64,000 bases of DNA, taken from assembly GCA_040389985.1 (NCBI GenBank), contig JAZJZH010000012.1, positions 35,027 to 99,026 of the forward strand, written 5' to 3'. The number at the start of each line of letters is the position of its first letter. The stretch's first letter is position 1. Source of the DNA: Pseudomonadota bacterium (lineage in GTDB: Bacteria > Pseudomonadota > Alphaproteobacteria > Sphingomonadales > Sphingomonadaceae). Both the position numbers and the translations under genes were made by a program. Below, in pieces: positions 19,552-42,564 of this stretch. The notes under the pieces are model-generated. The model was not told the DNA's origin. It searched no databases and saw only the letters and a list, made by a program, of their open reading frames with translations.

Positions 19552-19604
19552 GAAAAGGATCATCACAAATTCAAGCCGAAACGAATCGGCGTGGGAGAGA
19601 GACA

Positions 19605-22082: not shown

Positions 22083-22119
22083 TCCCCGTCTTTCCGGGGC
22101 GTTTCACGCCCGTGGAAAT

Positions 22120-22161
22120 CATGGTCTTCGCCGGTGACTGCACGCACCGGCGAAGATCATG
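22120..22161 (+). other. 17-bp-stem RNA hairpin between the receptor and GH68 genes, burying ATG 22159
   Basis: CATGGTCTTCGCCGGTG (22120..22136), loop ACTGCACG, CACCGGCGAAGATCATG (22145..22161). There are 16 Watson-Crick pairs plus one G-U, and no U-tract follows. Confidence 0.6.
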
Positions 22162-24206: not shown

Positions 24207-24263
24207 GCGAGACGAACAAGCAAGTCGGCGTGGTAAGGCGCGCCAATACCAAGCAAAGTCGCA

Positions 24264-24308
24264 AGCGCCGATCGTCTTCTCACGGAGGATTTCGGCGCTC
24301 TATTTTTT
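24264..24308 (+). terminator. rho-independent terminator of the sugar operon
   Basis: Stem AGCGCCGA (24264..24271) / TCGGCGCT (24292..24299), followed by CTATTTTTTG. Confidence 0.6.
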
Positions 24309-24369
24309 GCAACGATCCGTTGAAGTCATTCTAGTGGATCGGTAGGGGCAAGACGAGCATAAGGCCGCC

Positions 24370-25539
24370 ATGGCGCGCCTGACCCCTTCTATCCTGCGGA
24401 GTGACCCATTTCTCTTGTGGCTGATCGGCACGGTGGGCGTCGCGTCGCTATTGCCTGCCAGCGGGCAGGCCGCGGGCTGGATCGATGTGCTGGCCGATAT
24501 CGCCGTCGCCCTGCTATTTTTTCTCCATGGCGCAAAGCTGTCGCGCGCGGCGATTCTCCAGGGGATAGGCAACTGGCGGTTGCATTTGCTGGTCTTTGCT
24601 TCGACCTACATGCTGTTCCCGGCTGTTGGCATCGCGCTGACGTCGCTGATGCGGGGCTGGGCCGATCCGGTCCTCATGTCGGGCCTGCTCTATCTGACTC
24701 TTTTGCCGTCCACGGTCCAATCGTCGATCGCCTTTACGGCGATGGCGGGCGGCAATGTCGCCGCCGCCCTGTGCAGCGCGTCGCTGTCCAATCTGATTGG
24801 CATTCTGCTGACGCCCCTGCTCGTCACTTTGACCCTGAATGTGGAGGGACATGGCGGCACGGCCACGCTGCATTCCGTTCAGAATATCGCCCTGCAACTG
24901 CTGGTCCCCTTCGTCGCGGGCCATGTATTGCGCCCCTATATCGGCGGCTTCATCGACCGGCATAAGGGGTTGTTGATGCCGGTGGATCGCGGCGCGATAT
25001 TATTGGTCGTCTATTCCGCTTTCAGCGCCGCCGTGGCGGGCGGCATATGGATGCAGGTCGGTGTGGGCGACTTGCTGGTGCTGCTGGGCCTCAGTGCGCT
25101 CGTCCTGGCTATCGTCATGAGCGTCAACATGGGCGTCGCGCGGCTGGCCGGATTGCCGCGCCAGGACGCGATCGTGCTGCTGTTCTGCGGGTCCAAGAAA
25201 AGCCTGGTATCCGGCGTGCCGATGGCCGGCGCTCTGTTCCCGCCCGCGCAAGTCGGCCTGCTGATCCTGCCGCTGATGATATTCCACCAGTTGCAACTGC
25301 TTGTCTGTGCCGCGCTGGCCGGGCGGTTCGCGCGGCAAACTGAAGCTCCCCTGGCCCCGGTCCTGACCTCAACGCCCATCCCCCCGCTGCCCCGCAGCGA
25401 AGCGGACATTCATCGGGCGGCGGACGCCATCGGCCTGCCGATCGACGCGGCCTGCATGCCCGGCGTGGTCGCGAACATGGCCTTGCTCGATCGTCATGCC
25501 GGCCTGTTGCTGGACCGTCATGAAAGTGACGCGCCATGA
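24370..25539 (+). CDS. bile-acid:sodium symporter (BASS/SBF-like) family transporter with a C-terminal GatC/AtzG-like (DUF4089-type) soluble extension
   Basis: Residues 1-~325 are a multi-TM SBF-like core (FLHGAKLSR, LLPSTVQSSIAFTAMAGGN, GSKKSLVSGVPMA, IFHQLQLLVCA). A Pro-rich linker follows, then the tail EADIHRAADAIGLPIDAACMPGVVANMALLDRHAGLLLD. Its stop overlaps the amidase start. Confidence 0.8.
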   Translation: MARLTPSILRSDPFLLWLIGTVGVASLLPASGQAAGWIDVLADIAVALLFFLHGAKLSRAAILQGIGNWRLHLLVFASTYMLFPAVGIALTSLMRGWADPVLMSGLLYLTLLPSTVQSSIAFTAMAGGNVAAALCSASLSNLIGILLTPLLVTLTLNVEGHGGTATLHSVQNIALQLLVPFVAGHVLRPYIGGFIDRHKGLLMPVDRGAILLVVYSAFSAAVAGGIWMQVGVGDLLVLLGLSALVLAIVMSVNMGVARLAGLPRQDAIVLLFCGSKKSLVSGVPMAGALFPPAQVGLLILPLMIFHQLQLLVCAALAGRFARQTEAPLAPVLTSTPIPPLPRSEADIHRAADAIGLPIDAACMPGVVANMALLDRHAGLLLDRHESDAP

Positions 25540-26876
25540 CCAGCGCCATGGCGATCGCCCAGTCCGTGCGCAGCGGCCAGCAATCCGCCACGCAGATACT
25601 CGATCAATGTTTGGCGGCGCTGGCGAAGAAAGCAGCGCCGCTCTGCGCCGTCACCCGCATCATGGCCGGACCGGCGCGCGTGGATGCGGAGAGGATCGAC
25701 GCGCTGGTCGCCGGCGGGCGCGATCCAGGGCCGCTGGCGGGCGTGCCCTTTGGCGTCAAGGATCTGTTCGACATCGCCGGCCTGCCCACCACCGCCGGGT
25801 CGCGCCTTTATGCCGATGCGCCGCCAGCGACGCAGGATGCAGAAGCGATCCATCGCCTGAAAGCCGCAGGCGCGGTGCTGGTGGCGAGCCTCAACATGGA
25901 CGAGTTCGCCTATGGCTTTGCAACCATCAACGCGCTGCATGGCACCACCCGCAATCCGCATGACCCGACCCGGCTGGCCGGTGGATCGTCGGGCGGATCG
26001 GCGGCGGTGGTTGCGGCTGGGCTGTTGCCTTTTTCGCTGGGGTCGGACACCAATGGGTCGATCCGGGTGCCGGCCAGCCTGACCGGTCTGTACGGCCTGA
26101 AGCCTACGCATGGCGATTTGCCGATGGCGGGGGTCTTTCCCTTCGCCGACAGTTTCGACGATATAGGCCCGTTCACCGCGTCGCTGGCCGACATGGTGAC
26201 GATCTGGGAAATACTGAGCGGGCGATCCGCCCAGCCGGGCGACACGCCGATCCGCCTCGCCCGGCTGGGCGGCCGCTTCGCGCAGAATAGCGACCCCGAC
26301 CAGAGCGCTGCGATCGACGCCATCGCGCCCCATGCGCCGGTCGTGACTGTGCCAGACATAGCCCGCGCGCGGTCCGCCGCCTTCCTGATTACGGCCAGCG
26401 AAGGCGGGCGACTGCACCGCACGGCGCTGGCGCGCGACGCCATGGCGTTCGATCCCCAAGTGCGCGACCGGCTGATCGCCGGCACCTTGTTGCCCGATGG
26501 CCTGTATGCAGAAGCGCAGGCGTTCCGCGCCAGTTTCCGCACCACGATGCTGAATCTGATCGCGCCTTATGACGTGCTGATCGCGCCCGCGACGCCCTGC
26601 ACCGCGCCGTCGATCGACGATCCCCGTATCCTGATCGACGGGGCGATGGCGCCGGCGCGCGCGGATCTGGGCATCCATACCCAGCCGATCAGCTTCACCG
26701 GCTTCCCTTCGCTCAGCATTCCACTCTATCGTCCGGGGCGGTTGCCATTGGGGCTGCAACTGATCGGCAAGCCGGGGGGCGAACCGACCTTGTTTCGCCT
26801 GGCCGCCATGTTGGAGCAACGGGGCATCACCGGCGTCACCATGCCGGGACATCAACATTCGGGGGACATTGCATGA
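25536..26876 (+). CDS. amidase-signature hydrolase, AtzE-like (GatA-related)
   Basis: Catalytic Lys context GVPFGVKDLFD. Signature GGSSGGSAAVVAAGLLPFSLGSDTNGSIRVPASLTGLYGLKPT. 446 aa. It lies directly behind an AtzG-like segment. Confidence 0.85.
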   Translation: MTSAMAIAQSVRSGQQSATQILDQCLAALAKKAAPLCAVTRIMAGPARVDAERIDALVAGGRDPGPLAGVPFGVKDLFDIAGLPTTAGSRLYADAPPATQDAEAIHRLKAAGAVLVASLNMDEFAYGFATINALHGTTRNPHDPTRLAGGSSGGSAAVVAAGLLPFSLGSDTNGSIRVPASLTGLYGLKPTHGDLPMAGVFPFADSFDDIGPFTASLADMVTIWEILSGRSAQPGDTPIRLARLGGRFAQNSDPDQSAAIDAIAPHAPVVTVPDIARARSAAFLITASEGGRLHRTALARDAMAFDPQVRDRLIAGTLLPDGLYAEAQAFRASFRTTMLNLIAPYDVLIAPATPCTAPSIDDPRILIDGAMAPARADLGIHTQPISFTGFPSLSIPLYRPGRLPLGLQLIGKPGGEPTLFRLAAMLEQRGITGVTMPGHQHSGDIA

Positions 26877-28240
26877 CGCCATCGCAGGTCGCGGATCACC
26901 ATCCGCCAGAAGCGCCGACAGGCAGGCTGGACCGCTATTTCGCGCTCAGCCAGCGCGGCACATCGGCGCGAACGGAGGTGTTGGCCGGGATCACCACTTT
27001 CCTGACGATGGCCTATATCGTGCTGGTCAATCCGGCGATCCTGGGTTCGACCGGCATGCCCTTCGCCTCAGTCGCGGCGGCGACCTGCTTCGCCGCCGCC
27101 TTCGCCTCGATCCTGATGGGCCTGACCGCCAATGTCCCGCTGGCGCTGGCGCCGGGCATGGGGTTGAACGCCTACTTCGCCTTCACCGTGGTCGGGCAGA
27201 TGGGCGTGCCCTGGCCGATTGCGCTGGGCTGCGTCTTCCTGTCGGGCGTCGCCTTCCTGATCCTGACGCTGACCGGCGTGCGGCAGTTGATCGTTGCGGT
27301 CATCCCCACCTATTTATTCGCAGCGGTGGCGGGCGGCATTGGCCTGTTCATTGGCTTTATCGGCCTGAAAAATGCAGGGATCGTGGGCGCGAACCCGGCG
27401 ACCTTCGTGGCGCTGGGCGACCTCAAAGCCCCCGGTGCGGCGCTGGCGCTGCTGGGCCTTTTGGTGATCGGCACGCTCAGTGTCTGGAATGTGCGCGGCG
27501 CAATGCTGATCGGCATTGTCGCCACCACGATCGTCGGCTGGCTGACGGGCATGGTGACGGTCAAGCCCGAACCCTATAGTCTGGACGCGCTGACCGGCAC
27601 GGCGTTTCAGCTGGACCTGCCCGGCGTGTTCGGCCTGACCGGCACCCATGGCCTCGGCCTGCTGGAAATCCTGTTCGTCTTCCTGTTCGTGGATCTGTTC
27701 GATAATATCGGGACGCTGGTGGCGGTGACCAAGCGCGCCGGGTTGATGGATGCAGCAGGAAAGATTCCGGGCCTCAACCGCATATTGATGACCGACGCGG
27801 TCGCCACCATCGTTGGGTCGATGGCGGGCACCAGCACCGTCACGTCCTATGTCGAAAGCGCGGCGGGCGTGCAGGCGGGCGGGCGCACCGGCCTGACCGC
27901 TATCGTCACCGGCATACTGTTCCTATTGACCATGTTCGTCGCCCCCTATGCGCAACTCGTGCCGCTGGCCGCGACCGCGCCTGCGCTCATCATCGTCGGC
28001 GGCCTTATGCTGGTGCCGCTGACCGAGGTGGAGTGGGAAGACCCTATGTCGGCGATCCCCGCCTTCCTCACCGTGGCGATGATCCCGCTCACCTTTTCGA
28101 TCGCCAATGGCCTGGCCTTTGGCATCACCGCCCATGCGGCGCTCAAGGCGCTGCGCGGCACGGCCACGCGCAAGGACTGGTTCCTGTTCCTGCTGGCCGG
28201 CCTTTTCGTCGTTCGCTTCGTCTGGATGGGAGCAGCCTGA
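26873..28240 (+). CDS. NCS2 family, AzgA-type adenine/guanine/hypoxanthine permease
   Basis: Typical N-terminus LDRYFALSQRGTSARTEVLAGITTFLTMAYIVLVNPAIL. About 13 TM helices. ATGA overlap upstream. Confidence 0.88.
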   Translation: MTPSQVADHHPPEAPTGRLDRYFALSQRGTSARTEVLAGITTFLTMAYIVLVNPAILGSTGMPFASVAAATCFAAAFASILMGLTANVPLALAPGMGLNAYFAFTVVGQMGVPWPIALGCVFLSGVAFLILTLTGVRQLIVAVIPTYLFAAVAGGIGLFIGFIGLKNAGIVGANPATFVALGDLKAPGAALALLGLLVIGTLSVWNVRGAMLIGIVATTIVGWLTGMVTVKPEPYSLDALTGTAFQLDLPGVFGLTGTHGLGLLEILFVFLFVDLFDNIGTLVAVTKRAGLMDAAGKIPGLNRILMTDAVATIVGSMAGTSTVTSYVESAAGVQAGGRTGLTAIVTGILFLLTMFVAPYAQLVPLAATAPALIIVGGLMLVPLTEVEWEDPMSAIPAFLTVAMIPLTFSIANGLAFGITAHAALKALRGTATRKDWFLFLLAGLFVVRFVWMGAA

Positions 28241-29154
28241 TGCGTTTTATTGCCCTCGCGCTGCTGGCGCTCGCCTTGCCCTCTCAAGCCCTGGCGCGCA
28301 AGGCGGACAGCACGCCGCGCACCGTTGTCATGACCGCCTTCCTGCCCGAATGGGATGCGCTGGAAAAATCCGTCGATAGGCCCAAGCGGCACCAGATCAA
28401 CGGCATGACCTTCCTGACCGGCAGGATGGCGGGCAAGCCGGTGCTGCTGATGCAGAGCGGCGTGTCGATGGTGAATGCCGCGATGAACACGCAACTGGTG
28501 CTGGATCGCTTTACCGTGCGGCGAATCGTCTTTTCCGGCATTGCCGGTGGGGTTGATCCCGGCCTGTCGATCGGCGACGTCATCGTGCCGCAGGATTGGG
28601 CGCAGTATCTGGAAGTCTCCTTCGCGCGCAAAAATGGCGACGGCTGGACCGTGCCCGAAGCGGTCGATGCCACAGCGCCGGCCAATTGGGGCATGATGTT
28701 CCCGCGCGGCGTGCGCATCGGCAATGCGAACGAGCCGGTGAAGCGCCATTATAGTTTCGCCGTCGATCCCGCCTTGCTGCAACTGGCGCAGAATGTGGCG
28801 GCCGACGTTAAATTGGAACGCTGCGTCCAAAATGAGGGTGCGGCCCCAGCGTGCCTGCCGCATGATCCCAAGATCGTGATCGGCGGCACTGGTGTCAGCG
28901 CGGGCGTCTTCGCAGACAATGCCGAGTTTCGCGACTATCTGAGCAGCGCATGGAAGGCGCGCGTGCTGGACATGGAAAGCGCAGCGGTGGCGCAGGTCGC
29001 CTATGCAAATGACGTCCCAGTCATCGTTTTCCGCAGCCTTTCCGACCTGGCCGGCGGCGATGCGGGCGAGAACCAGATGGTCGCCTTCATGGCCTTGGCC
29101 TCGGTCAACAGCGCCCATGTCGTGCGCGCCTTCGTCGCGGCGCTGCCCGACTGA
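28240..29154 (+). CDS. secreted PNP/MTAN-superfamily nucleosidase/phosphorylase-like protein
   Basis: Inner part of ORF 28033..29154. ATG 28240 (TGATG junction) gives the signal peptide MRFIALALLALALPSQALA. PNP_UDP_1-type blocks FSGIAGG and VLDMESAAVAQVA..VIVFRSLSDLAGG. Confidence 0.75.
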   Translation: MRFIALALLALALPSQALARKADSTPRTVVMTAFLPEWDALEKSVDRPKRHQINGMTFLTGRMAGKPVLLMQSGVSMVNAAMNTQLVLDRFTVRRIVFSGIAGGVDPGLSIGDVIVPQDWAQYLEVSFARKNGDGWTVPEAVDATAPANWGMMFPRGVRIGNANEPVKRHYSFAVDPALLQLAQNVAADVKLERCVQNEGAAPACLPHDPKIVIGGTGVSAGVFADNAEFRDYLSSAWKARVLDMESAAVAQVAYANDVPVIVFRSLSDLAGGDAGENQMVAFMALASVNSAHVVRAFVAALPD

Positions 29155-30740
29155 TGGCGCTTTCGACCGTATCTGGCCGGCACGGCATGGTCACGGCACC
29201 GCATCATCTGGCGAGCGCGGCGGGGCTGGACGTGCTGCGCGAGGGCGGCAACGCGGTGGAGGCGTGCGTCGCGGTCGCGGCGACGCTGGCAGTGGTCTAT
29301 CCGCACATGACCGGCATCGGCGGCGATGGCTTCTGGCTGATCCACCCTGGTCCGGGTTCCGATGTTGTAAGTATTCACGGTTGCGGCGGCGCGGCGGCCA
29401 AGGCGGACCTGTCGCTTTACGCAGGCCTCGACATGATCCCGAACCGCGGACCGCTGGCCGCCAATACGGTAGCGGGCACGATATCGGGCTGGGCAGCGGC
29501 CCTGGACAGCATTTGGGGCGACATGCCGCTCGCACGGTTGCTGCGCGACGCCATCGGCCACGCGCGGACGGGCGTGGCTGTCACGGCGGGCGGCGCGGGA
29601 ATCGCGGCGGCCAAGGGCGACGAATTGCGGGGGCAATCCGGCGCCTATGCGACGACCTTCGAACCCGAAGGTCGCCCGCTGCGCGAGGGCGATCTGCTGC
29701 GCCAGCCTGCGCTGGCCGACACGCTGGAACGGCTGGCGACGGAAGGTCTGGACAACTTCTACACAGGAACATTGGCCACTGACATCGCGGCTGATCTGGA
29801 AGCGCTGGGCAGTCCGCTGACCGCAGCAGATATGGCCGCGCACGACGCCTTTATAGCGACACCGTTGCACACACGGATCAGTGGCGCGACCCTCTATAAC
29901 AGCGCGCCGCCGACCCAGGGCTTCGCCTCACTGCTGATCCTCGCCCTGTTTGACCGGCTGCGCGCTGGGAGCCCCGATGGGTTCGACCATGTGCATGGGC
30001 TGGTCGAAGCGACCAAACAGGCCTTCCTGATCCGCGACATGCATGTCGGCGACCCGGCGTTCCATGATTATGACTGGCAGGGATTGCTGGACGATCCCAC
30101 CGCGCTGGACGCGCTGGCAGCGAAAGTCGATCCGGCCCGAGCCCTCCCATGGCCGCAGCCGCCGCAATGGGGTGACACCTGCTGGTTCGCGGCCGCCGAT
30201 GGCGACGGGCGCGTCGTATCCTGCATCCAGTCCACCTATTTCGAGTTCGGATCGGGCCTGGTGCTGCCGCGCACCGGCATCACCTGGCAGAATCGCGGCA
30301 GCAGCTTCCGATTGGCGCAGAGCGGCTGGAATGCGCTCAAGCCCGGTCGCAAGCCTTTCCACACACTCAATCCCGCGTTCGCCTGTTTCGAGGATGGCCG
30401 GGTCATGGCCTATGGCACAATGGGCGGCGAGGGCCAGCCGCAGACGCAGGCGGCCTTGTTCACGCGCTACGCCCGCTATGGCATGGACTTGCAGGAGGCG
30501 ATCAGTGCGCCGCGCTGGCTGCTGGGGCGGACCTGGGGCGACCCATCGACCACGCTCAAGCTGGAGGACGGGTTCGACGAGAGCCTTTACGCTGAACTCG
30601 CGGCCGCCGGTCATGATGTCGAACGAGTCGGGCCGATAACTGCGACCATGGGTCATGCCGGGGCGATTCTGCGTCATCCTGACGGCAGGCTGGACGGCGC
30701 GACCGACCCGCGTAGCGACGGCGCGGTGGCTGCATGCTGA
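29154..30740 (+). CDS. gamma-glutamyltransferase-fold Ntn hydrolase (candidate HpxW-like oxamate amidohydrolase)
   Basis: GGT-family N-terminus GMVTAPHHLASAAGLDVLREGGNAVEACVAVAATLAVVYPHMTGIGGDGFWL, and APPTQGF around the expected autoprocessing Thr. No signal peptide. The specific function is inferred from context only. Confidence 0.75.
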   Translation: MALSTVSGRHGMVTAPHHLASAAGLDVLREGGNAVEACVAVAATLAVVYPHMTGIGGDGFWLIHPGPGSDVVSIHGCGGAAAKADLSLYAGLDMIPNRGPLAANTVAGTISGWAAALDSIWGDMPLARLLRDAIGHARTGVAVTAGGAGIAAAKGDELRGQSGAYATTFEPEGRPLREGDLLRQPALADTLERLATEGLDNFYTGTLATDIAADLEALGSPLTAADMAAHDAFIATPLHTRISGATLYNSAPPTQGFASLLILALFDRLRAGSPDGFDHVHGLVEATKQAFLIRDMHVGDPAFHDYDWQGLLDDPTALDALAAKVDPARALPWPQPPQWGDTCWFAAADGDGRVVSCIQSTYFEFGSGLVLPRTGITWQNRGSSFRLAQSGWNALKPGRKPFHTLNPAFACFEDGRVMAYGTMGGEGQPQTQAALFTRYARYGMDLQEAISAPRWLLGRTWGDPSTTLKLEDGFDESLYAELAAAGHDVERVGPITATMGHAGAILRHPDGRLDGATDPRSDGAVAAC

Positions 30741-31969
30741 GCGGCGGAGCGAGAGCGGTCGCGCGCTGCGATGCGCTGGGCATAGCGCCCTATAGCGACA
30801 TGGCGGACGGCCTGTATCGTGGCTATCTGACGCCGGCCTATGCCCAAGCACAAGCGACGCTGGCCGGGTGGATGGAGGAGGCGGGGATGGGTGTGCGGCG
30901 CGACCCGGCCGCCAACCTGATCGGCCGCTATGAGGGGCTGGACCCGGCCGCGCCCGCGCTGCTGATCGGCAGCCATCTCGACAGCGTGAAGGATGCGGGG
31001 CGCTATGACGGGCCGCTGGGCATCATGCTGGGCGTGGAGGCGGTCGCGGCGCTGCACCGCGCCGGGCGACGCCTGCCCTTCCCGATCGAGGTGATCGCCT
31101 TTGGCGACGAGGAGGGATCGCGCTTTCCCGCCGCAATGCTGACCAGCCGGGCGGTGGCGGGTACGCTGGTGGCTGAGGCGCTGGGGCTGCGCGATGGGAA
31201 CGGCGTTGCATTGGCGGATGCAGGTGTCGATGTCGGTGCCTATCTCTCCGCAGCGCGTGCGCCTGCCACCACCCTCGCCTATCTCGAAGCGCATATCGAA
31301 CAGGGTCCGGTACTGGAGGCGCAGGGTTTGGCGCTCGGCACCGTTACCGGCATCGCGGCGCAACTGCGCTATCAGGTGACGCTGCGGGGCATGGCAGGCC
31401 ATGCCGGCACGACGTCGATGCCCTTGCGGCGCGACGCGCTCGCGGGCGCGGCGGAAGCGATGCTGGCGATCGAGGGACTGGCGCGCGATGCCGCATCCGA
31501 TCTCGTGGCCACGGTGGGGCGGATCGAGGCGCTGCCCGGTGCGGCCAATGTCATCCCCGGCAAAGTGCGCTTCACCATCGACGTGCGGTCTGGCGATGCG
31601 GCTCGGCGCGATAGCGCCGCGGAGGCGATGATCGACGCCATCACCGCCATCGCCGGCCGCCGCCGGCTGGATGTGGCAACGACGCTGGTCCACGACTTGC
31701 CCGCCAGTCCGTGCGATCCTTTGTTGATGACCCTGATGGACGCCGCCATCGCGGGGACGGGGCAGCAACCCTTCCGGCTTGTGTCGGGCGCGGGCCATGA
31801 TGCCATGGTGATGGCGGCGCTGTGCCCGACGGCCATGCTGTTCATTCGTTGCAAGGACGGGATCAGCCATAATCCTGCCGAACATGTCGATCCGGCCGAT
31901 GCGGAACGCGCGTTACACGCCATGCTGGGCTTCATAGAGAGATTGGGAGAGTGTGTTGTTGCCGCTTGA
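30734..31969 (+). CDS. allC: allantoate amidohydrolase (M20 family Zn/Mn hydrolase)
   Basis: Motifs LAGWMEEAGMGVRRDPAANLIGRYEG, IGSHLDSVKDAGRYDGPLGI, AFGDEEGSRF, GAGHDAM. It lies in the purine operon. Confidence 0.8.
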   Translation: MLSGGARAVARCDALGIAPYSDMADGLYRGYLTPAYAQAQATLAGWMEEAGMGVRRDPAANLIGRYEGLDPAAPALLIGSHLDSVKDAGRYDGPLGIMLGVEAVAALHRAGRRLPFPIEVIAFGDEEGSRFPAAMLTSRAVAGTLVAEALGLRDGNGVALADAGVDVGAYLSAARAPATTLAYLEAHIEQGPVLEAQGLALGTVTGIAAQLRYQVTLRGMAGHAGTTSMPLRRDALAGAAEAMLAIEGLARDAASDLVATVGRIEALPGAANVIPGKVRFTIDVRSGDAARRDSAAEAMIDAITAIAGRRRLDVATTLVHDLPASPCDPLLMTLMDAAIAGTGQQPFRLVSGAGHDAMVMAALCPTAMLFIRCKDGISHNPAEHVDPADAERALHAMLGFIERLGECVVAA

Positions 31970-33194
31970 TCCGAACTTATTTGGCGACATCGACCCACCC
32001 CAGCGGCTGCTGATGGGGCCGGGGCCGGTTAATGCCCATCCCCGCGTGCTGCGCGCCATGTCCGCCGATCTGCTGGGCCAGTTCGACCCGGAAATGACCG
32101 GCTATATGAACCAGGTCATGGCGCTCTATCGTCCGATCTTCGACACGCAGAATCAATGGACGATGCTGGTCGATGGCACTGCGCGGGCGGGGATCGAAGC
32201 GGCGCTGGTCAGCCTGGTCGCGCCGGGCGACACCGTGCTGGTGGTCAATTTCGGCCGCTTCGGCCTGCTGCTCACGGAAATATTGGGCCGCATCGGCGCG
32301 CAGGTCGAAACGGTGGAGGCGTCCTGGGGCGACGTCGTGCCGATGGACGCCATCGCCGCCGCGATCGAACGGGTGCAGCCCAAGGTGGTCGCGACCATCC
32401 ATGGCGATACCTCCACCACCATGACGCAACCGCTCGACGGGTTGGGCGCGCTGTGCGCGGCGGCGGGGGCGCTGCTCTATGTCGATGCGACCGCGACGAT
32501 CGGCGGCATGGCAATTGCCGCCGATCGCTGGGGCGCGGACATCGTCACCGGCGGCTTGCAGAAATGCCTCGGCGGGCCTTCCGGCTCGGCGCCGATCACC
32601 ATCTCCGACAAGGCGGCGGCGTTGATCCAGGGCCGCAAGCGGGTCGAAGCGGGCATCCGCCGCGACGACATCAGCGACGGCGCGGGACCGCGCATCAGCT
32701 CCAACTATTTCGACCTCGCCATGATTATGGATTATTGGAGCGACAAGCGTCTCAATCATCATACCGAGGCGACGTCCATGCTCTACGCCGCGCGCGAATG
32801 TGCGCGGATCATGCTGGGCGAAGGGCTGGAGGCACGCTACGCCCGCCACGAAGCCGCCGGGCGCGCCATGACCGCCGGGCTGCGCGCCATGGGGCTGACC
32901 GTCTTTGGCGACGACGCGCATCGCATGACCAATGTGACCGGCGTCTTCATGCCTCAGGGTGTAGACGGCGAGCGGGTCCGCACGATGATGCGCGATGCGT
33001 TCGAGATCGAGATCGGCACTGCCTTTGGTCCGTTGCAGGGCCGCATCTGGCGGATCGGCGCGATGGGCTATAACGCAATGAAGCATAAGGTTCTGATCAC
33101 GCTCGGCGCGCTGGAGGCCTGCCTGCGGCGGGAGGGATTTGCGCTGCCCGCGGGCGAGGCTGTCAACGCCGCGATGGCGACGTGGGACGCATGA
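31953..33194 (+). CDS. class-V pyridoxal-phosphate aminotransferase (PucG/HpxJ-like ureidoglycine-glyoxylate or Ser/Ala-glyoxylate type)
   Basis: Motifs MGPGPVNAHPRVLRAM and GDTSTT. PLP-Lys context GGLQKCLGGPSGSAP. The start is one of GTG 31953, TTG 31956 or TTG 31959, behind GGGAGAG. Confidence 0.8.
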   Translation: MLLPLDPNLFGDIDPPQRLLMGPGPVNAHPRVLRAMSADLLGQFDPEMTGYMNQVMALYRPIFDTQNQWTMLVDGTARAGIEAALVSLVAPGDTVLVVNFGRFGLLLTEILGRIGAQVETVEASWGDVVPMDAIAAAIERVQPKVVATIHGDTSTTMTQPLDGLGALCAAAGALLYVDATATIGGMAIAADRWGADIVTGGLQKCLGGPSGSAPITISDKAAALIQGRKRVEAGIRRDDISDGAGPRISSNYFDLAMIMDYWSDKRLNHHTEATSMLYAARECARIMLGEGLEARYARHEAAGRAMTAGLRAMGLTVFGDDAHRMTNVTGVFMPQGVDGERVRTMMRDAFEIEIGTAFGPLQGRIWRIGAMGYNAMKHKVLITLGALEACLRREGFALPAGEAVNAAMATWDA

Positions 33195-34066
33195 CCCCGC
33201 CCCGCGACCTCATAGGCTATGGCGCGTCGCCGCCCGATCCGCGCTGGCCCGGCGGCGCGCGGGTCGCGGTGCAGTGCGTCGTCAATTATGAGGAAGGCGC
33301 GGAAAACAGCGTCCTCAACGGCGACAAGGGCTCCGAAGCCTTTCTGTCCGAAATGGTCGGCGCGCAGAGCCATCCCGACCGGGCGATGGCGATGGAAAGC
33401 CTGTATGAATATGGCGCGCGCGTCGGTTTCTGGCGGCTGCACCGGATCTTCACGCAGCGCGGCCTGCCGGTCACGGTCTTTGGCGTAGCGAAAGCGATGG
33501 CGATGAACCCCGCAGCGGTCGAGGCGATGCTGGCGGCGGACTGGGAAATCGCCAGTCACGGCCTGAAATGGATCGACTATCAAACCGTGCCCGAAGACGT
33601 CGAGCGCGCGCATATTACCGAAGCGATCGCGCTGCACACCAGCCTGACCGGCAGCCGCCCCTTGGGCTGGTATCAAGGCCGCACATCGCCCAACACCGCC
33701 CGGCTGATGCGGGAGGAAGGCGGCTTCGTCTATGATGCGGACAGCTATGCCGACGACCTACCCTATTATGATCGCGGGCAGTTGATCGTCCCCTACACGC
33801 TGGACGCCAACGACATGAAGATGGTCGCTTATAACGGCTTTACCGAGGGCGAGCAGTTCTTCCGCTATCTGTGCGACACGTTCGATCAGTTGCGGGAGGA
33901 AGGTGGGCGGATGATGTCGGTCGGCCTGCATGGCCGCATCGCCGGTCGCCCTGCGCGCGCGCGCGCGCTGGCCCGTTTCCTCGATCATGTCATCGCGTCC
34001 GGCGACGCTTGGGTCGCGCGCCGCATCGATATCGCCCGCCACTGGATGGAGGTTCACCCCGCATGA
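33191..34066 (+). CDS. puuE: allantoinase, PuuE type (polysaccharide-deacetylase fold)
   Basis: Motifs RDLIGYGASPPDPRWPGGARVAVQCVVNYEEGAE, YEYGARVGFWR, HGLKWIDY. I prefer ATG 33191 (ATGA overlap) over GTG 33182. Confidence 0.88.
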   Translation: MTPPRDLIGYGASPPDPRWPGGARVAVQCVVNYEEGAENSVLNGDKGSEAFLSEMVGAQSHPDRAMAMESLYEYGARVGFWRLHRIFTQRGLPVTVFGVAKAMAMNPAAVEAMLAADWEIASHGLKWIDYQTVPEDVERAHITEAIALHTSLTGSRPLGWYQGRTSPNTARLMREEGGFVYDADSYADDLPYYDRGQLIVPYTLDANDMKMVAYNGFTEGEQFFRYLCDTFDQLREEGGRMMSVGLHGRIAGRPARARALARFLDHVIASGDAWVARRIDIARHWMEVHPA

Positions 34067-34443
34067 CGATAGACGATCCCATATTGCTCGCCGAAATCAC
34101 CGCGGCCTTCGCCGCCTATGAGCGCGCGTTGATGGCGGACGACGTGCCCGCCATGGATGCGCTGTTCCATGATGCGCCGACCACCAACCGCTATGGCGTG
34201 GGCGAGGTGCTTTACGGCATCGAGGAGATACGGGCGTTCCGCAAGGGTCGCGGCGGATCGCCGCAGCGCACATTGGGGAAGGTCGCAATCACCGTCTATG
34301 GCGACGCTTTCGCCACCGCCGACGCCGAATTTTTCCGTGAGAATAGCGACCGGCGCGGTCGCCAGACGCAAAGCTGGGTCAAGTTCGCCGATGGCTGGAA
34401 AGTCGTGTCGGCGCATGTCTCGCTGGAGGGGAACACGCATTGA
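34063..34443 (+). CDS. NTF2-like DUF3225 / AtzH-like protein
   Basis: 3' part of ORF 33871..34443. ATG 34063 overlaps the puuE stop. 126 aa: MTIDDPILLAEITAAFAAYERALMADDVPAMDALF... RGRQTQSWVKFADGWKVVSAHVS, a SnoaL/NTF2-like pattern as in AtzH-like proteins. Confidence 0.65.
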   Translation: MTIDDPILLAEITAAFAAYERALMADDVPAMDALFHDAPTTNRYGVGEVLYGIEEIRAFRKGRGGSPQRTLGKVAITVYGDAFATADAEFFRENSDRRGRQTQSWVKFADGWKVVSAHVSLEGNTH

Positions 34444-34895
34444 CCGGCCCCCAACAAGCGTTGTTCGAACATAGCCCTTGGATAGAGGCGCGGGCCGATG
34501 CGCGCCCGTCGTCCGGGGACCGCTGGGCGGACCTGATGGCGGTGGTCCGCAGCGCCAGCGGCGAGGAGCAATTGGCCCTGATCCGCGCCCATCCTGAACT
34601 GGCGGGCAAGGCGGCGATTGACCGGACGCTGACCGACGCATCGGCGGCGGAACAGGCGTCGGCCGGGCTGGATCGGCTGACGCCGCAAGACTATGCGCAC
34701 TTCCATGCGCTCAACACCGCCTACCGGGAGCGCTTCGGCTTCCCCTTCATCATCTGCGTGCGGCTGACCGACAAGGCGGGGATATTGGCGGCCATGGAGC
34801 AGCGTCTGGCGCATGAGCGGGACGAGGAGATCGCGACCGCGATCGAGCAGATTGGGCAGATCGTCCGGCTACGGTTGGGGGATATGGAGGCATGA
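34440..34895 (+). CDS. uraD: 2-oxo-4-hydroxy-4-carboxy-5-ureidoimidazoline (OHCU) decarboxylase
   Basis: Motifs FEHSPWIEARA, LIRAHPELAGK, RFGFPFIICVR. TTG start overlapping the upstream stop (TTGA). The N-terminus is about 10 residues shorter than I would expect for the family. Confidence 0.85.
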   Translation: MTGPQQALFEHSPWIEARADARPSSGDRWADLMAVVRSASGEEQLALIRAHPELAGKAAIDRTLTDASAAEQASAGLDRLTPQDYAHFHALNTAYRERFGFPFIICVRLTDKAGILAAMEQRLAHERDEEIATAIEQIGQIVRLRLGDMEA

Positions 34896-36310
34896 TCGGC
34901 CTGCCCGCCCTGGAAGCGGACCTCGCTCGCCAATTGTCGCTGATCGGTTTCGGCGGCGCGGACTGGACCCGGCCGCGCGCCCATCCCGACGGTCACGTCC
35001 ATGACGTCGTGATCGTGGGCGGGGGGCAGAGCGGGCTTGCCGCGGCCTTCGGCCTGCTCCGCGAGCGGGTGTCCAACATCCTGGTCATCGACGAAAGCCC
35101 GGCGGGTCTGGAGGGGCCATGGGACAGCTATGCGCGGATGATTACGCTGCGCACGCCCAAGATGCTGAACCCGATCGACTTCGGCGTTCCCGCCCTCACC
35201 TATCGCGCCTGGTGGGAGGCGCAGCACGGGAGGGCAGGCTGGGACGCGGTCGACAAGATCGCGCGCGGCGACTGGATGGCCTATCTGCGCTGGTATCGGC
35301 GGGTGCTGGCGCTGCCGGTGCGCAACGATACGCGCCTGACGCTGATCGAGCCGATCGGGGACGGGCTGCACCGGTTGCATCTGGACGGGCAAGCGCCACT
35401 ACTGGCGCGCAAGGTCGTGCTGGCGACCGGCATCCAGGGCGGCGGGCAGTGGCATACCCCCGCGATGGTCCGCGAGGCCCTGCCCCGCCACCTCTACGCC
35501 CACACCAGCGAACCAATCGACTATGCCGCGCTGGCGGGCAAGCGGATCGGCATATTGGGTGGCGGTGCGTCGGCCTTCGACAATGCCCATGCGGCGATGC
35601 GCCTGGGCGTGGCGGAGGCGCATGTTTTCATCCGGCGCAAGAGCCTGCCGCGGATCAACCCCATTCGCTTCATGGAGCGGGTCGGCTTCACTGGCCGCTA
35701 TCCTGCGCTCGATGACGCGACCAAATATCGGGTGATGGCGAGTTTCCTGGGCCATAACCAGCCGCCCACTAACGACACCTTCGATCGCGCGGCAGCCTGG
35801 CCGGGTTTCGCGCTGCATCTAGGCGCGCCATGGCTAGATGTGAGACAGCGAGATGGACAGGTCTGCGTGAACACGCCGCAGGGCGAACAGATGTTCGATT
35901 TCGTGGTCCTATCAACTGGCCTCATCAGCGATCCCGGCCTGCGCCCCGAATTGCGGCTAGTGGCGGACGGGATCGCGCGCTGGGCCGATCGCTTCACCCC
36001 GCCGCCGGGCCAAGGCAACGCGGTGATAGACGCGCATCCCTATCTTGGCCCCGGCTTTCAACTGCTGCCGCGCGACGCGGCGGGCGACGCTGCGCTGCAC
36101 GGCCTGTTCGCCTTCAATTATTCGGCGCTCATCAGCCTAGGCCTCTCCGCCTCGGCGCTGTCGGGGTTGCAGACCGCCCTGCCCCGGCTGGTCCGCGGCG
36201 TCACCGACCAGCTGTTTCTGGACGATGGGGAGGCGCTGGTCGCCGACCTGATCGCCTATGACGAAGCGGAGTTTATCGGCCAATGGCCGCGCCAGGAGGC
36301 GGCCGAATGA
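34892..36310 (+). CDS. FAD/NAD(P)-binding two-dinucleotide-domain oxidoreductase (candidate HpyO-like urate hydroxylase)
   Basis: Two dinucleotide-binding motifs: VVIVGGGQSGLAAAFGL (FAD) and IGILGGGASAFDNA (NAD(P)H). It sits between uraD and uraH with ATGA overlaps on both sides. No other urate oxidase is present in the window. Confidence 0.6.
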   Translation: MIGLPALEADLARQLSLIGFGGADWTRPRAHPDGHVHDVVIVGGGQSGLAAAFGLLRERVSNILVIDESPAGLEGPWDSYARMITLRTPKMLNPIDFGVPALTYRAWWEAQHGRAGWDAVDKIARGDWMAYLRWYRRVLALPVRNDTRLTLIEPIGDGLHRLHLDGQAPLLARKVVLATGIQGGGQWHTPAMVREALPRHLYAHTSEPIDYAALAGKRIGILGGGASAFDNAHAAMRLGVAEAHVFIRRKSLPRINPIRFMERVGFTGRYPALDDATKYRVMASFLGHNQPPTNDTFDRAAAWPGFALHLGAPWLDVRQRDGQVCVNTPQGEQMFDFVVLSTGLISDPGLRPELRLVADGIARWADRFTPPPGQGNAVIDAHPYLGPGFQLLPRDAAGDAALHGLFAFNYSALISLGLSASALSGLQTALPRLVRGVTDQLFLDDGEALVADLIAYDEAEFIGQWPRQEAAE

Positions 36311-36636
36311 CCAGCCTGTCCACCCATGTTCTCGACACCGCCCATGGCTGCCCCGCCGAAGGCATGGCGATCCAATTGCTGTCAGCGGACGGCGCGCTAT
36401 TGTTCGCAGGCGCGACCAATGCGGACGGCCGCTGCCCCGGCCTGCCGCCAATCCAGCCCGGCCGCTATCAGCTGACATTCGCGGTCGCGGCCTATTATCG
36501 GGTGCGCGGGACCGCGCTGGCTGACCCGCCTTTCCTTGACGTTATAGCTGTCCATTTCGGTGTCTCAGACGATGGCCATTATCATGTCCCGTTGCTGCTA
36601 TCGCCCTATGGCTATTCAACCTATCGGGGGAGTTGA
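36307..36636 (+). CDS. uraH: 5-hydroxyisourate hydrolase (transthyretin-like)
   Basis: N-terminal LSTHVLDTAHGCPA. HVPLLLSPYGYSTYRGS with the C-terminal YRGS signature. ATG 36307 overlaps the upstream stop. Confidence 0.92.
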   Translation: MTSLSTHVLDTAHGCPAEGMAIQLLSADGALLFAGATNADGRCPGLPPIQPGRYQLTFAVAAYYRVRGTALADPPFLDVIAVHFGVSDDGHYHVPLLLSPYGYSTYRGS

Positions 36637-36637
36637 G

Positions 36638-38060
<1,423 letters not shown>

Positions 38061-38068
<8 letters not shown>

Positions 38069-40370
38069 GGGCGATCCCGGCTTGGCGGCGCTGGCGAAGC
38101 CCTCCAACCCGCATGACAGCGCGGCGCTGCATGTCAGCGGTCGCGCCCACTATGCCGACGACCTGCCGGAACCGGCCGCCATGCTGCACCTGGCTTTCGG
38201 CCAGAGCAAGGAGGCCCATGCGCGGATTACGGCCATCGATCTGACCGCCGTGCGCGCCGCGCCGGGGGTGGTGGCGGTCTATACCGCCATCGACATAAGC
38301 GGCACCAATGACGTCAGCCCGGTCGCGGGCGACGACCGGCTGCTGGCGGACGGCGAGGTCATCTGCATCGGCCAGCCGATCTTCCTGGTGGCTGCGACCA
38401 GCCAGCGCGCCGCGCGGCAGGCGGCGCGGCTGGGCGAGATCGCTTACGCCCGCTTGCCCGCGCATCTGACGATCGCCGATGCCCGTGCCGCTAGATCACT
38501 GATCGAACCGACCCAGCGCATGGCGCGGGGCGATGCCGCAGCCGCGCTGGCGCAGGCACCCCGGCGCCTGACGGGCGGTTTCGACATGGGCGGACAGGAT
38601 CATTTTTATCTGGAGGGCCAGGTCGCGATCGCGACGCCGGGTGAGGATCGACAGATGCATGTCCTGTCGTCCACCCAGCATCCCAGCGAAGTGCAGCATC
38701 TGGTCGCGCATATGCTCTGTCGCCGTTCCGCCGACGTGACGGTCGAGGTCCGGCGCATGGGCGGCGCGTTTGGGGGGAAGGAGACGCAGGCCGCTCTCTT
38801 CGCCGCTGCCGCTGCTCTGGTGGCGGACAAGACGGGACGCCCCGCCAAGTTCCGCTGCGACCGCGACGACGATATGGTGATGACTGGCAAGCGGCATGAC
38901 TTCCGGGTCGATTATGAGACGGGCTTTGACGCACAGGGCCGCGTACTGGCGCTCAAGCTGCGGCTCGCTTCCCGCTGCGGCGCGACCGTCGACCTCTCCC
39001 CCGCGATCAACGACCGGGCGATGTTCCATGCTGACAATTGCTATCACCTCCCCGCGATCGAGATTATTTCGGAACGGCTGAAAACCCACACAGTCTCCGC
39101 AACAGCCTTTCGCGGCTTTGGCGGGCCGCAGGGGATGCTGGCGATCGAACGGGTCATGGATGATGTCGCCGCGCATCTGGGCGTCGATCCGATCGAAGTG
39201 CGGATCGCCAATCTCTACGGCCCCGGCCGCGACATCACCCCCTATGACATGCCGCTCACAGACAATATCGCGCCGCAACTGATCGCCCGGCTGCGCGCGG
39301 ACGCCTGCTATGATGCAAGGCGGCAGGCGATCGCCGCGTTCAACACGCGCAATCCGGTGCTGAAGAAGGGGATCGCGCTGACCCCGGTCAAGTTCGGCAT
39401 CAGCTTCACCACCACCCACCTTAATCAGGCCGGCGCGCTGGTCCATGTCTATGCCGATGGCAGCATCCAGATCAACCATGGCGGCACGGAGATGGGCCAG
39501 GGCCTGTATATCAAGGTGGCGCAGGTGGTGGCGGACGTGTTCGCCGTGCCGGTGGGGCAGGTGCGGATCACCGCGACGCGGACGGACAAGGTGCCCAATA
39601 CCTCCGCGACCGCGGCGTCATCGGGCGCGGATTTGAATGGCATGGCGGCCTACAACGCCGCGATGACGATCCGGGACCGGCTGACCGACTTTGCCGCGCG
39701 CAGCTTCGGTTGCGACGCCGATGATGTGCGGTTCACGCAGGACGGCGTGCAGGTCGGCGCGGACCGGCTGCGCTTTGGCGACCTTTGCCGCAAGGCGCAT
39801 ATGGGCCGCGTTTCGCTGTCCTCGACCGGCTATTACGCCACGCCCGACATCGCCTATGACCGCGCCGCGCATAAGGGCCGCCCCTTCTATTATTTCGCTT
39901 ACGGCGCGGCGGTGGCGGAGGTCGCGATCGACACGCTGACTGGCGAGCATAGAGTGCTGGCGGTCGATATATTGCACGATGTCGGCAAGTCGTTGAACCC
40001 GGTCATCGATATCGGCCAGATCGAGGGCGGCTTCCTCCAGGGGCAGGGCTGGCTCACCACTGAAGAACTGGTCTGGGATGACAAGGGCCGGCTGCTGACC
40101 CATTCGCCCGCAACCTACAAGATCCCGACCGCGTCGGACCGGCCGCGCCATCTGTCGATCCGACTGTGGGACGGGGAGAATGTGCAGCCGACGATCAATC
40201 GGTCCAAGGCGGTGGGCGAGCCGCCCTTCATGCTGGCGATTTCGGTCTTTTCCGCGCTTCATCAGGCGATCGCCGCCGTCGCGCCCGACAAGCGCGCTTT
40301 GCCCCCGCTGGATGCGCCAGCAACGCCGGAGCGGATTTTGCGCGCGATTAAGGATCATCGCGCCGCATGA
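38061..40370 (+). CDS. xdhB: xanthine dehydrogenase molybdopterin-binding large subunit
   Basis: ATG 38061 (8-nt overlap with xdhA). Motifs RRMGGAFGGKETQ, TAFRGFGGPQG, GGTEMGQGL, AVGEPPF. Confidence 0.93.
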
Positions 40371-41287
40371 GCGAATGGCTGGCATGGATGAAGGAGGTGG
40401 CGTCGAGCGAACCGGCTGCGCTGGTCAGCGTACTGGCGAGCGAGGGGTCGGCGCCGCGGGGCGCGGGCACGCGGATGCTGGTAAGCGCAAACCGGCTGTT
40501 CGGGACGATCGGCGGGGGTCAATTGGAGCACCGCGCGATCGAACAGGCGCGGACCATATTGGCGCTGCCGCCGGGTAGCTGGCGGGTGCAGGATTATCCG
40601 CTGGGACCGTTACTGGGCCAATGTTGCGGCGGGCGGGTGCGGTTGCTGATCGAGCATGTCGATCCCGCTGCGCTCGACTGGCTGGCTGATGCGGCAGAGG
40701 AGCGCGTGCTGGTGTCCATGCTCTCGCCCGGCCGGATCGAGCGCCATGTCAGTGCGAAGGCCGCGCCCACCGCCCTGTCGGCGCGGGGCGACCGGCCGCG
40801 GGAGGGCGCGACCTTCGCCGAGATGATCGGCCAGCGCCGCCGCCCGCTCTATCTGTTCGGCGCCGGCCATGTCGGCCAGGCGATCGCCCGCCATGCCCAG
40901 GCGCTACCGCTACGCCTCGCCTGGTTCGACACGCGGCCCTTGTTCGAGACGATCGACGGCGTCGCCATCGTGCCGGAGGATGCGATCGCGCAATGCGTCG
41001 CAGAAGCGCCAGATGACGCCGCGATGTTGATCCTGACCCATGACCATGCGCTCGACTATCGGCTGACCCGCGCGGCGCTGGAGCGGGGACCGATCGCCTT
41101 TGTGGGCCTCATCGGATCGCAGACCAAGCGTGCGCGCTTCCATAGTCGGCTGGAGCGCGACGGCGTTTCGCAAACGGCGCGCGCGCGGCTGACCTGCCCG
41201 ATCGGCATCAGTGGCGTGGCCGGCAAGGAACCGGATGTGATCGCCATCGCTGCGTTGGCCCAATTGCTGCAACTGGAGCGGCCATGA
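40367..41287 (+). CDS. xdhC: xanthine dehydrogenase accessory/maturation protein XdhC
   Basis: Motifs GSAPRGAGTRMLV, GTIGGGQLE, QCCGG, LYLFGAGHVG. ATGA overlap upstream. Confidence 0.9.
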   Translation: MSEWLAWMKEVASSEPAALVSVLASEGSAPRGAGTRMLVSANRLFGTIGGGQLEHRAIEQARTILALPPGSWRVQDYPLGPLLGQCCGGRVRLLIEHVDPAALDWLADAAEERVLVSMLSPGRIERHVSAKAAPTALSARGDRPREGATFAEMIGQRRRPLYLFGAGHVGQAIARHAQALPLRLAWFDTRPLFETIDGVAIVPEDAIAQCVAEAPDDAAMLILTHDHALDYRLTRAALERGPIAFVGLIGSQTKRARFHSRLERDGVSQTARARLTCPIGISGVAGKEPDVIAIAALAQLLQLERP

Positions 41288-42564
41288 CTATCCGGGCCTT
41301 TCGCGGCGAAATCCTGTCGGTGGCGGATGATCCGCTCACCTGCGCCGACGCCGTGCGGCATGAGCCGGACGGGCTGCTGGTGGTGGAGAATGGCATCATC
41401 GTAGCGCGCGGCACCTATGCCGACCTCGCGCCGGTTCATGCCGATGTGGCGGTCGAGACGCTGCCGGGACTGATCGTGCCGGGCTTCATCGACGCCCATG
41501 TCCATTATCCGCAGATGGACCGGATCGCCTCGCATGGCGAACAACTGCTGGACTGGCTTGATCGTCATATCTTCCCGGCGGAAAAAGCCTTCGCCGATCG
41601 CGCCCATGGCGACCTTGTCGCCGGGCTGTTTCTGGACGAACTGCTGCGGAATGGCACCACCAGCGCCCTGGTCTTCCCGACCGTCCATGCTCATTCGGTC
41701 GATGCGCTGTTCGACGCGGCATTGGCGCGCAACATGCGGATAATTTCCGGCAAGGTACTGATGGACTTGGGACCGGAGGGGCTGGCCGATACGCCGGAAA
41801 CGGCACGTACCGAGAGCGAGGCGCTGATCGGCCGGTGGCGCGGCAGGGGGCGGCTGGGTTACGCCGTGACGCCGCGTTTCGCGCTTACCTCGTCCGATAA
41901 GCAACTCCATGTAGCGGGCGCTCTGCTGGCGGATCATGCCGATGTACTTCTGCACACCCATCTGGCGGAAAATGAACGCGAATGTGCGGCGGTGGCGGCG
42001 CGCTTTCCCGATGCGGCCGACTATCTGGACGCCTATGACCGCTTCGGGCTGGTGGGTGCGCGTTCGGTCTTCGCCCATGGCGTCCATCTGTCCGATCGCG
42101 CCTGCGCCAGGATGGGAGAGAGCGGCGCGGGGATCGCCGTTTGCCCGACCTCCAACCTGTTTCTGGGGTCGGGCTTTTTCGACTTCAGCCAAGCCGCGCG
42201 GCATGGGATGAAGCTGGGCCTTGGCACCGATGTTGGCGCGGGCACCAGCTTTGCAATGCTGCACACCGCCGGGATCGCCTATCAGGCGGCTCTGATGCGC
42301 GGGCATCGGCTCGATCCGTTTCGAGCGCTGTATCTGGCGACGGCGGGCAGCGCGGCGCTGCTGCATATCGGCGACAAGGTCGGCGGATTGCTGCCAGGGC
42401 AGGAGGCCGATTTCGTGGTGCTGGACTGCGCCGCCACGCCCCTGCTGGCGCGCCGTACCGCCGACGCGGGCCTTGCCGAACGGCTGTTCGCGTTGCAGAT
42501 ATTGGCCGATGACCGGGCCGTCGCGGGCACCTATATCATGGGGCGGCGCGTCGACTGCGCATGA
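41284..42564 (+). CDS. guaD: guanine deaminase
   Basis: Amidohydrolase HxH motif PGFIDAHVHYPQ. Also HLAENEREC and GTDVGAG. ATGA overlap upstream. Confidence 0.88.
   Translation: MTIRAFRGEILSVADDPLTCADAVRHEPDGLLVVENGIIVARGTYADLAPVHADVAVETLPGLIVPGFIDAHVHYPQMDRIASHGEQLLDWLDRHIFPAEKAFADRAHGDLVAGLFLDELLRNGTTSALVFPTVHAHSVDALFDAALARNMRIISGKVLMDLGPEGLADTPETARTESEALIGRWRGRGRLGYAVTPRFALTSSDKQLHVAGALLADHADVLLHTHLAENERECAAVAARFPDAADYLDAYDRFGLVGARSVFAHGVHLSDRACARMGESGAGIAVCPTSNLFLGSGFFDFSQAARHGMKLGLGTDVGAGTSFAMLHTAGIAYQAALMRGHRLDPFRALYLATAGSAALLHIGDKVGGLLPGQEADFVVLDCAATPLLARRTADAGLAERLFALQILADDRAVAGTYIMGRRVDCA

Follow-up and report, generated by a model that had tools for sequence, protein, structure and literature searches.

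We analysed a 64-kb stretch of Sphingomonadaceae DNA (contig JAZJZH010000012.1 of assembly GCA_040389985.1, positions 35,027 to 99,026; hereafter the window), with a G+C content of about 65%. At position 24370 begins a purine-catabolic operon of a Sphingobium, whose genes are translationally coupled. Its first gene encodes a transporter of the SBF_like family whose C-terminus carries a small domain related to HpxX and AtzG, and its second gene encodes HpxY, an amidase of the AtzE family. An original prediction, made from the sequence without database searches, had seen in this amidase and two small companions a set resembling AtzE, AtzG and AtzH of cyanuric acid catabolism, and had proposed it as the oxalurate-to-oxamate step of an undescribed purine-degradation route. 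Open reading frames (ORFs) of the window were searched against the Pfam and NCBIfam profiles and against the sequences of the Protein Data Bank (PDB) for solved relatives.

The first gene (24370..25539, + strand) encodes a protein of 389 amino acids (aa) with three parts. The transporter core (aa 12–322) covers the whole SBF_like profile (PF13593, also known as DUF4137; 322.8 bits, profile positions 1–313 of 313) and is of the SLC10A7/YfeH type, with no sequence relative among solved structures. A Pro/Ala-rich linker of variable length (25336..25389) leads from the last transmembrane helix to a tail of 45–50 aa (25390..25536), a GatC-like helix-loop-helix domain of the HpxX/AtzG type and the presumed docking site for HpxY. 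In the AlphaFold2 model, about ten membrane helices are followed by an unstructured stretch (aa 329–343; pLDDT, the model's per-residue confidence score, below 50 at aa 327–335) and by two helices at aa 344–353 and 360–382.

The original prediction had described the AtzG-like segment as a stretch of about 45 aa preceding the amidase. It had not recognised that the segment, far from being a separate gene, is fused to the SBF_like transporter. Position 25396 reads AGC, which is no start codon, and the segment lies in frame with the transporter ORF, with no stop codon and no ATG, GTG or TTG from the last transmembrane helix to the segment. An open frame devoid of start codons makes the AtzG-like segment the C-terminal domain of the transporter rather than a coding sequence of its own. 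Internal initiation was also considered and ruled out, as no ATG, GTG or TTG lies between the last transmembrane helix and the domain, and as every fused orthologue likewise has an open frame here.

Pfam AtzG-like (PF13318) matches aa 348–381 of the full protein with 22.3 bits and the isolated tail with 26.4–26.6 bits, for a gathering score of 24, over profile positions 2–36 of 50; HpxX of Klebsiella covers positions 1–50 with 67.6 bits. The amidase and the NTF2-fold protein described below are recognised by the AtzE-family and AtzH profiles, as the original prediction expected, and the AtzG-like segment exceeds its gathering score when searched alone and falls below it in the context of the full protein. 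All 42 orthologous tails examined match the AtzG-like family. The best 120 database homologues of the fused protein, originating from isolates and metagenomes of Sphingobium, Sphingomonas, Novosphingobium and Altererythrobacter, are 374–420 aa long and 63–96% identical, and every one of them carries the tail. In an alignment of fused homologues, the linker varies in length and sequence and both of its flanks are conserved. The tail follows the consensus LPRTEAEIxxAAxAxGLxIPxACMPGVxANLALLDRHA, with P341, C362, G365, V366, N369, L373 and H376 invariant. HpxX proteins of Acetobacteraceae possess an additional C-terminal stretch (PLPxxCEPAxEY) that is missing from the sphingomonad type. A profile of the tail searched against 1.84 billion representative proteins returned 275 matches, most of them 46–130 aa long. 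Our literature search on AtzG and DUF4089 found no description of a transporter fusion. Separately, one truncated library protein of 142 aa (P0241) joins a sphingomonad-type AtzG-like sequence directly to an amidase N-terminus, and would represent a second kind of fusion, of this tail type to the amidase.

The amidase gene (hpxY; 25536..26876, +) starts with an ATG that overlaps the stop codon of the transporter–HpxX ORF as ATGA (25536–25539). The 446-aa product scores 285.9 bits against Pfam Amidase, 542.4 bits against the NCBIfam model for AtzE family amidohydrolases (NF006631; cutoff 461) and 531.6 bits against TIGR02715 (cutoff 425.75), the matches extending over aa 3–436. The motifs of the Ser-cisSer-Lys amidase signature are present at aa 73 (GVKDLFD), aa 149 (GGSSGGS) and aa 169 (GSDTNGSIRVPA) and align with those of AtzE (PDB 6c62, chain A), which is also the top PDB match (335 bits). 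Profiles, motifs and coordinates thereby confirm the amidase-signature gene that had been predicted to overlap the AtzG-like segment. The enzyme, a candidate oxalurate amidohydrolase, is 46% identical to Klebsiella HpxY and is devoid of a signal peptide. An antisense open frame of 454 aa (25518–26882, – strand) lies opposite the amidase; long antisense frames of this sort are typical of high-GC DNA.

The third member of the set, hpxZ (34063..34443, +), lies between puuE and uraD, where the original prediction had located an NTF2-like gene related to AtzH. Its product scores above the cutoffs of both the HpxZ equivalog model of NCBIfam (NF033625; 150.1 bits, cutoff 135) and the Pfam AtzH-like family (PF11533; 164.1 bits, gathering score 27), and is 51% identical to Klebsiella HpxZ. 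Among solved structures it matches 2rcd, 2owp and AtzH, the last of these strongly. The AtzH study lists Tyr22, Arg46, Arg63, Arg66, Arg73, Phe94, Arg96, Gln106 and Gln108 as pocket residues (PMC6219798). With the AtzH numbering fixed by means of the R73K variant entry, the alignment shows all nine to be identical in the HpxZ of the window, the first five corresponding to Tyr19, Arg43, Arg60, Arg63 and Arg69.

Two further genes encode the enzymes expected on either side of oxalurate hydrolysis. The GGT-fold Ntn hydrolase (29154..30740, +; Pfam G_glu_transpept, 416.5 bits) finds its top PDB matches in Klebsiella HpxW (5hft; chain A 301 bits, chain B 245 bits), with GGTs and cephalosporin acylase ranking lower, and it remains below the cutoff of the NCBIfam GGT model (339.3 versus 357.85 bits). 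Its Thr342 corresponds to the residue that opens the small chain of 5hft, at the autoprocessing boundary, and the protein is a candidate oxamate amidohydrolase of the HpxW type. The class-V aminotransferase (31953..33194, +) is closest to 3nnk, the ureidoglycine-glyoxylate aminotransferase HpxJ (511.6 bits), followed by PucG (3isl, 433.3 bits) and, at some distance, by the next match with 268.9 bits.

The rest of the operon likewise lies on the + strand. A xanthine/uracil permease family transporter (26873..28240; Xan_ur_permease, 147.9 bits), whose position is unchanged in relatives, directly follows hpxY, and precedes a PNP_UDP_1 nucleosidase/phosphorylase-like protein (28240..29154; 140.7 bits). 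The latter has a signal-peptide-like N-terminus (MRFIALALLALALPSQALA) and a weak match to the NUP "purine nucleoside permease" family; the corresponding slot is filled in many, though not all, related operons and encodes products of 306–314 aa, and its presence suggests a periplasmic nucleoside-cleaving step. Beyond hpxW lie an allantoate amidohydrolase of the AllC/HpxK type (30734..31969; NF006775, 575.9 bits, cutoff 479), hpxJ, the allantoinase gene puuE (33182..34066; TIGR03212, 489.8 bits, cutoff 424.6), hpxZ, the OHCU decarboxylase gene uraD (34440..34895; OHCU_decarbox, 145.2 bits), a FAD-dependent monooxygenase that is a candidate urate hydroxylase (34892..36310; NAD_binding_9, Pyr_redox_3 and DAO) and the 5-hydroxyisourate hydrolase gene uraH (36283..36636; Transthyretin, 112.4 bits). 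The operon continues with xdhA, xdhB, xdhC and a guanine deaminase-like amidohydrolase (36560..42564, gene starts approximate), recognised by the Pfam families Fer2, Fer2_2, FAD_binding_5 and CO_deh_flav_C, by Ald_Xan_dh_C and MoCoBD_1/2, by XdhC_CoxI and XdhC_C, and by Amidohydro_1, respectively. Most gene junctions are 4-nt overlaps, with ATGA at 25536, 26873, 34063 and 34892, an arrangement that supports translational coupling.

Profile searches thus recovered every purine-catabolic function listed in the original prediction, namely xdhABC, the putative urate hydroxylase, uraH, uraD, puuE, allC, the class-V aminotransferase and the GGT-fold hydrolase. The urate hydroxylase gains further support from two related loci, L001 and L003, where the FAD monooxygenase has no counterpart and a membrane protein gene of the Urate_ox_N family (PF06181) directly follows uraH (20876–21146 in L001 and 21118–21167 in L003), in what looks like a non-orthologous replacement of the urate-oxidising step. 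No Pfam family of ureidoglycine aminohydrolase, ureidoglycolate lyase, oxamate carbamoyltransferase or carbamate kinase was found among the scanned ORFs of the window; the reported lack of a ureidoglycolate branch is therefore confirmed for this 64-kb window only. Promoter and terminator scans of positions 24000–43500 gave hits at chance level only, and Rfam has no match inside the purine operon.

With the amidase as a query, one genome per species was scanned, which provided 80 loci, the nearest being those of a metagenome-assembled genome (92% amidase identity) and of Sphingobium cupriresistens (91%). Together with five further amidase-bearing loci, these gave 84 loci with the amidase on the + strand. 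The amidase start coincides with the end of an AtzG-like domain in 81 of these 84 loci. This domain is fused to SBF_like in 28 of the 81 loci (25 of the 80 genome loci). Elsewhere, SBF_like is followed on the same strand by an adjacent, separate hpxX of 55–61 aa with its own ATG and a 4-nt overlap with the amidase gene (4/81), lies adjacent and divergent (4/81), or is found at the 3' end of the operon (1/81); the remaining 44 loci have a free hpxX and no SBF_like gene within 10 kb. Transporter and hpxX occupy different frames in the split forms of L013, L016 and L027 (about 9750–10004) and of L005 (3015–3200). An apparent fusion at L052 was rejected by a strand check, the frame concerned (8803–9999, +) being a long antisense frame opposite the real gene.

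A neighbour-joining tree of the amidases shows the fused state dominating one sphingomonad clade, with split and free forms interspersed, and hpxX free outside this clade. In one free form, at L020, the last transmembrane helix still survives upstream as a remnant. Downstream of the amidase, the gene order is kept in Sphingomonadales, as seen in Sphingobium, Sphingomonas, Novosphingobium and Altererythrobacter: permease, PNP_UDP_1 (variably present), hpxW, allC, hpxJ, puuE, hpxZ, uraD, FAD monooxygenase (also variable), uraH and xdh. Clusters of a related kind are present in Komagataeibacter, Gluconacetobacter, Acetobacter and Xanthomonas, and the amidase module co-occurs with HpxJ and HpxW in dozens of genomes. 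The Sphingomonadales operon and the Acetobacteraceae and Xanthomonas clusters together indicate that the HPX lower branch is widespread beyond enterobacteria.

The route itself is not new, contrary to what had been proposed. The HPX pathway is named in Klebsiella, in the literature and in NCBIfam, whose equivalog models for HpxX and HpxZ both bear the name "oxalurate catabolism protein". The hpxWXYZ operon is cited from work of 2009 (PMC3560190), pucG, hpxY and hpxW have been listed as leading from ureidoglycine via oxalurate to oxalate (PMC13518431), and a further article calls hpxY an "oxalurate amidohydrolase", with reference to the review of the ALL and HPX pathways by Huynh and Stewart from 2023 (PMC12625717). 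The assignment of the AtzE/G/H-like set to the oxalurate-to-oxamate step agrees with orthology and genomic context, and it is only the novelty of the route that falls away. In a Klebsiella pneumoniae record recovered by tblastn, hpxX (61 aa, "oxalurate catabolism protein HpxX") is grouped with an AtzE-family amidohydrolase gene and hpxZ ("oxalurate catabolism protein HpxZ"), an aminotransferase-family gene lies alongside, and a tblastn match to the HpxW of the window is found just upstream of hpxX.

The two systems share the AtzE-family amidase, the GatC/AtzG-like partner, the AtzH-like NTF2 protein, the GGT-fold hydrolase, the ureidoglycine aminotransferase and the allantoate amidohydrolase, and the stop codon of Klebsiella hpxX overlaps the hpxY start by 4 nt just as the tail in the window does. 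They differ in several respects. The HpxX of the window is fused to SBF_like, and the last third of the AtzG-like profile is missing from it; the Klebsiella cluster contains an ABC transporter instead; hpxZ is separated from hpxY and inserted between puuE and uraD; hpxW follows hpxY, which it precedes in Klebsiella; and all steps from xdh to hpxW are gathered in one operon.

A comparable small partner is GatC of the GatCAB amidotransferase, a helical protein that wraps around the amidase-signature subunit and stabilises it. The window differs from that system in having neither GatB nor a tRNA context, and in a partner that is covalently joined to a membrane transporter. The comparison with GatC also draws on the origin of AtzEG given by Esquirol et al. 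(2018; PMC6219798). The same text describes ggt-atzG-atzE-atzH clusters near allantoate amidohydrolase and transaminase genes in Enterobacteriaceae, without naming oxalurate. As in our operon, genes for a GGT-like protein, allantoate amidohydrolase and transaminase accompany the atzG/E/H-like genes of these clusters; they differ in having a free atzG, and come from Enterobacteriaceae and other Proteobacteria, with no mention in that text of a transporter fusion or of the sphingomonad layout.

These elements can be assembled into a proposed pathway. XdhABC, the FAD-dependent urate hydroxylase, UraH, UraD and PuuE would convert xanthine to allantoate, allantoate amidohydrolase would release ureidoglycine, and the HpxJ-type aminotransferase would turn ureidoglycine into oxalurate. 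HpxY, bound to its GatC/AtzG-like partner HpxX, would then deamidate the ureido group of oxalurate, after which the AtzH-like HpxZ would remove the N-carboxyl group to yield oxamate, and the GGT-fold HpxW would hydrolyse oxamate to oxalate and ammonia. By homology, oxalurate and its deamidated product are the putative substrates of HpxY and HpxZ.

The fusion adds a spatial component to this scheme. In analogy to AtzG and GatC, the tail is predicted to bind HpxY and thereby to hold the amidase on the transporter. The SLC10 fold leads one to expect a cytoplasmic C-terminus, so that the tail would reside in the cytoplasm; as HpxY has no signal peptide, its binding to the tail would, if this orientation of the transporter is correct, most likely dock it on the inner side of the membrane. 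Overall, we consider it probable that the operon encodes a lower purine pathway of the HPX type, with the HpxX adaptor attached to an SBF_like transporter and HpxY docked at the membrane.

To our knowledge, no substrate has been assigned to the SBF_like (SLC10A7/YfeH) family. The recurring adjacency of SBF_like to hpxXY in unfused arrangements speaks for a place of the transporter in the pathway, and its cargo is probably a small anionic intermediate, e.g. oxalurate, oxamate, oxalate or allantoate, with uptake of oxalurate or export of oxamate or oxalate as candidate roles. More tentatively, SBF_like may be a dedicated carrier of oxalurate or of a neighbouring anion, which would recruit HpxY via HpxX into a membrane complex for transport and hydrolysis.

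Several observations weigh against this interpretation, beginning with the tail itself, which by sequence is a divergent and shortened member of the AtzG-like family. The NCBIfam HpxX model (NF033624), with which Klebsiella HpxX scores 101.7 bits, gave no match to it at E ≤ 10, and when hhalign was used to compare the tail profile with one sequence, that of Klebsiella HpxX, it produced no alignment. A profile of the 42 tails searched against PDB sequences failed to recover the AtzG chain of 6c62 and returned only weak ferredoxin noise. The transporter model is also of moderate quality, with a mean pLDDT of 64, and hydropathy and positive-inside charge counts gave no clear orientation for the tail. 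Finally, the amidase clade includes many genomes whose hpxX is split or free and which have no SBF gene in the surrounding 10 kb. The presence of split and free forms in one clade implies that the fused state is easily lost, and its repeated loss implies that tethering is at most helpful and can be dispensed with.

The last point is the strength of the most serious alternative, in which the pathway is correctly assigned but the fusion serves no function: the coupled SBF_like and hpxX genes would have lost the stop codon between them, and the tail would act as a free HpxX does, without channeling. That close relatives (L005, L013, L016 and L027) have split forms with their own ATG, and that many genomes of the same clade have a free hpxX with no SBF gene nearby, counts in its favour. 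Against it, most members of the core sphingomonad clade have the fused form, which is still found at 63% protein identity, and more distant lineages keep SBF_like beside hpxXY in three other arrangements, evidence for a functional link between transporter and amidase module. We accordingly regard a meaningless fusion as unlikely, and prefer a tail that docks HpxY on its transporter.

A second alternative concerns chemistry, the set acting on another ureide or amide (1-carboxybiuret, triuret-type urate oxidation products, allophanate or ureidoglycolate) and not on oxalurate. Here too some observations count against our interpretation. The amidase resembles AtzE, a 1-carboxybiuret hydrolase, about as much as it resembles Klebsiella HpxY, by the scores given above, so the substrate is not fixed by sequence alone, and the conserved AtzH pocket of HpxZ is one that binds 1,3-dicarboxyurea. 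Our literature search turned up no study in which HpxXY or HpxZ had been assayed with oxalurate, and the function ascribed to them consequently derives from naming and gene context. That context nevertheless speaks against another substrate. AtzE, AtzG and AtzH of Pseudomonas sp. ADP (PDB 6c62 and 6bjt) belong to the same protein families and serve cyanuric acid catabolism, with 1-carboxybiuret as substrate where oxalurate is presumed for the window; their setting is s-triazine degradation, whereas ours is purine catabolism, and no atzD, atzF, biuH or trtA-type gene was detected among the scanned ORFs of the window. The co-occurring HpxJ makes oxalurate and HpxW consumes oxamate, the two steps flanking the gap, and HpxZ exceeds the threshold of its own equivalog model. 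We therefore judge another substrate to be quite improbable and retain oxalurate as the presumed one. The different frames of the two parts in some relatives might raise the suspicion that sequencing or assembly had overlooked a frameshift or stop codon in the window, but such an artefact is scarcely credible in view of the same in-frame architecture in 28 independent loci and in all of the best 120 homologues, the frame staying open despite differences in linker length.

The surroundings of the operon contain other metabolic genes. On the upstream side, positions 17108–24206 encode a LacI regulator, an MFS transporter, a TonB-dependent receptor, a GH68 levansucrase/invertase and a ROK kinase, probably a sucrose or levan utilisation cluster. 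Further upstream lies the sole Rfam match of the window, to the mmgR/suhB small RNA family (RF00519; 15123–15197, –; 52.6 bits, gathering score 41). Downstream, positions 43304–54586 hold a second purine/nucleoside scavenging block with adenosine deaminase, a LysR regulator, two NUP-family genes, an adenosine-deaminase-like protein, a LOG/Lysine_decarbox-family protein (44408–44986, –), a TonB-dependent receptor and a second xanthine/uracil permease.

The operon lays out the pathway from xanthine to oxalate as a single conserved unit of Sphingomonadales. Its fully hydrolytic lower route, requiring neither ATP nor the formation of urea, is already present in annotation and reviews as the HPX pathway, and the transporter–HpxX architecture is a new variation on it. 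The coexistence of fused, split and free forms offers a natural system for probing the role of the GatC/AtzG-like partner. Fusion and unfused adjacency together lead to a testable hypothesis on the substrate of the transporter and on membrane docking of the amidase. If true, this would provide the first clue to a substrate for the SBF_like family, and would reveal a GatC-like adaptor reused as a docking module on a transporter.

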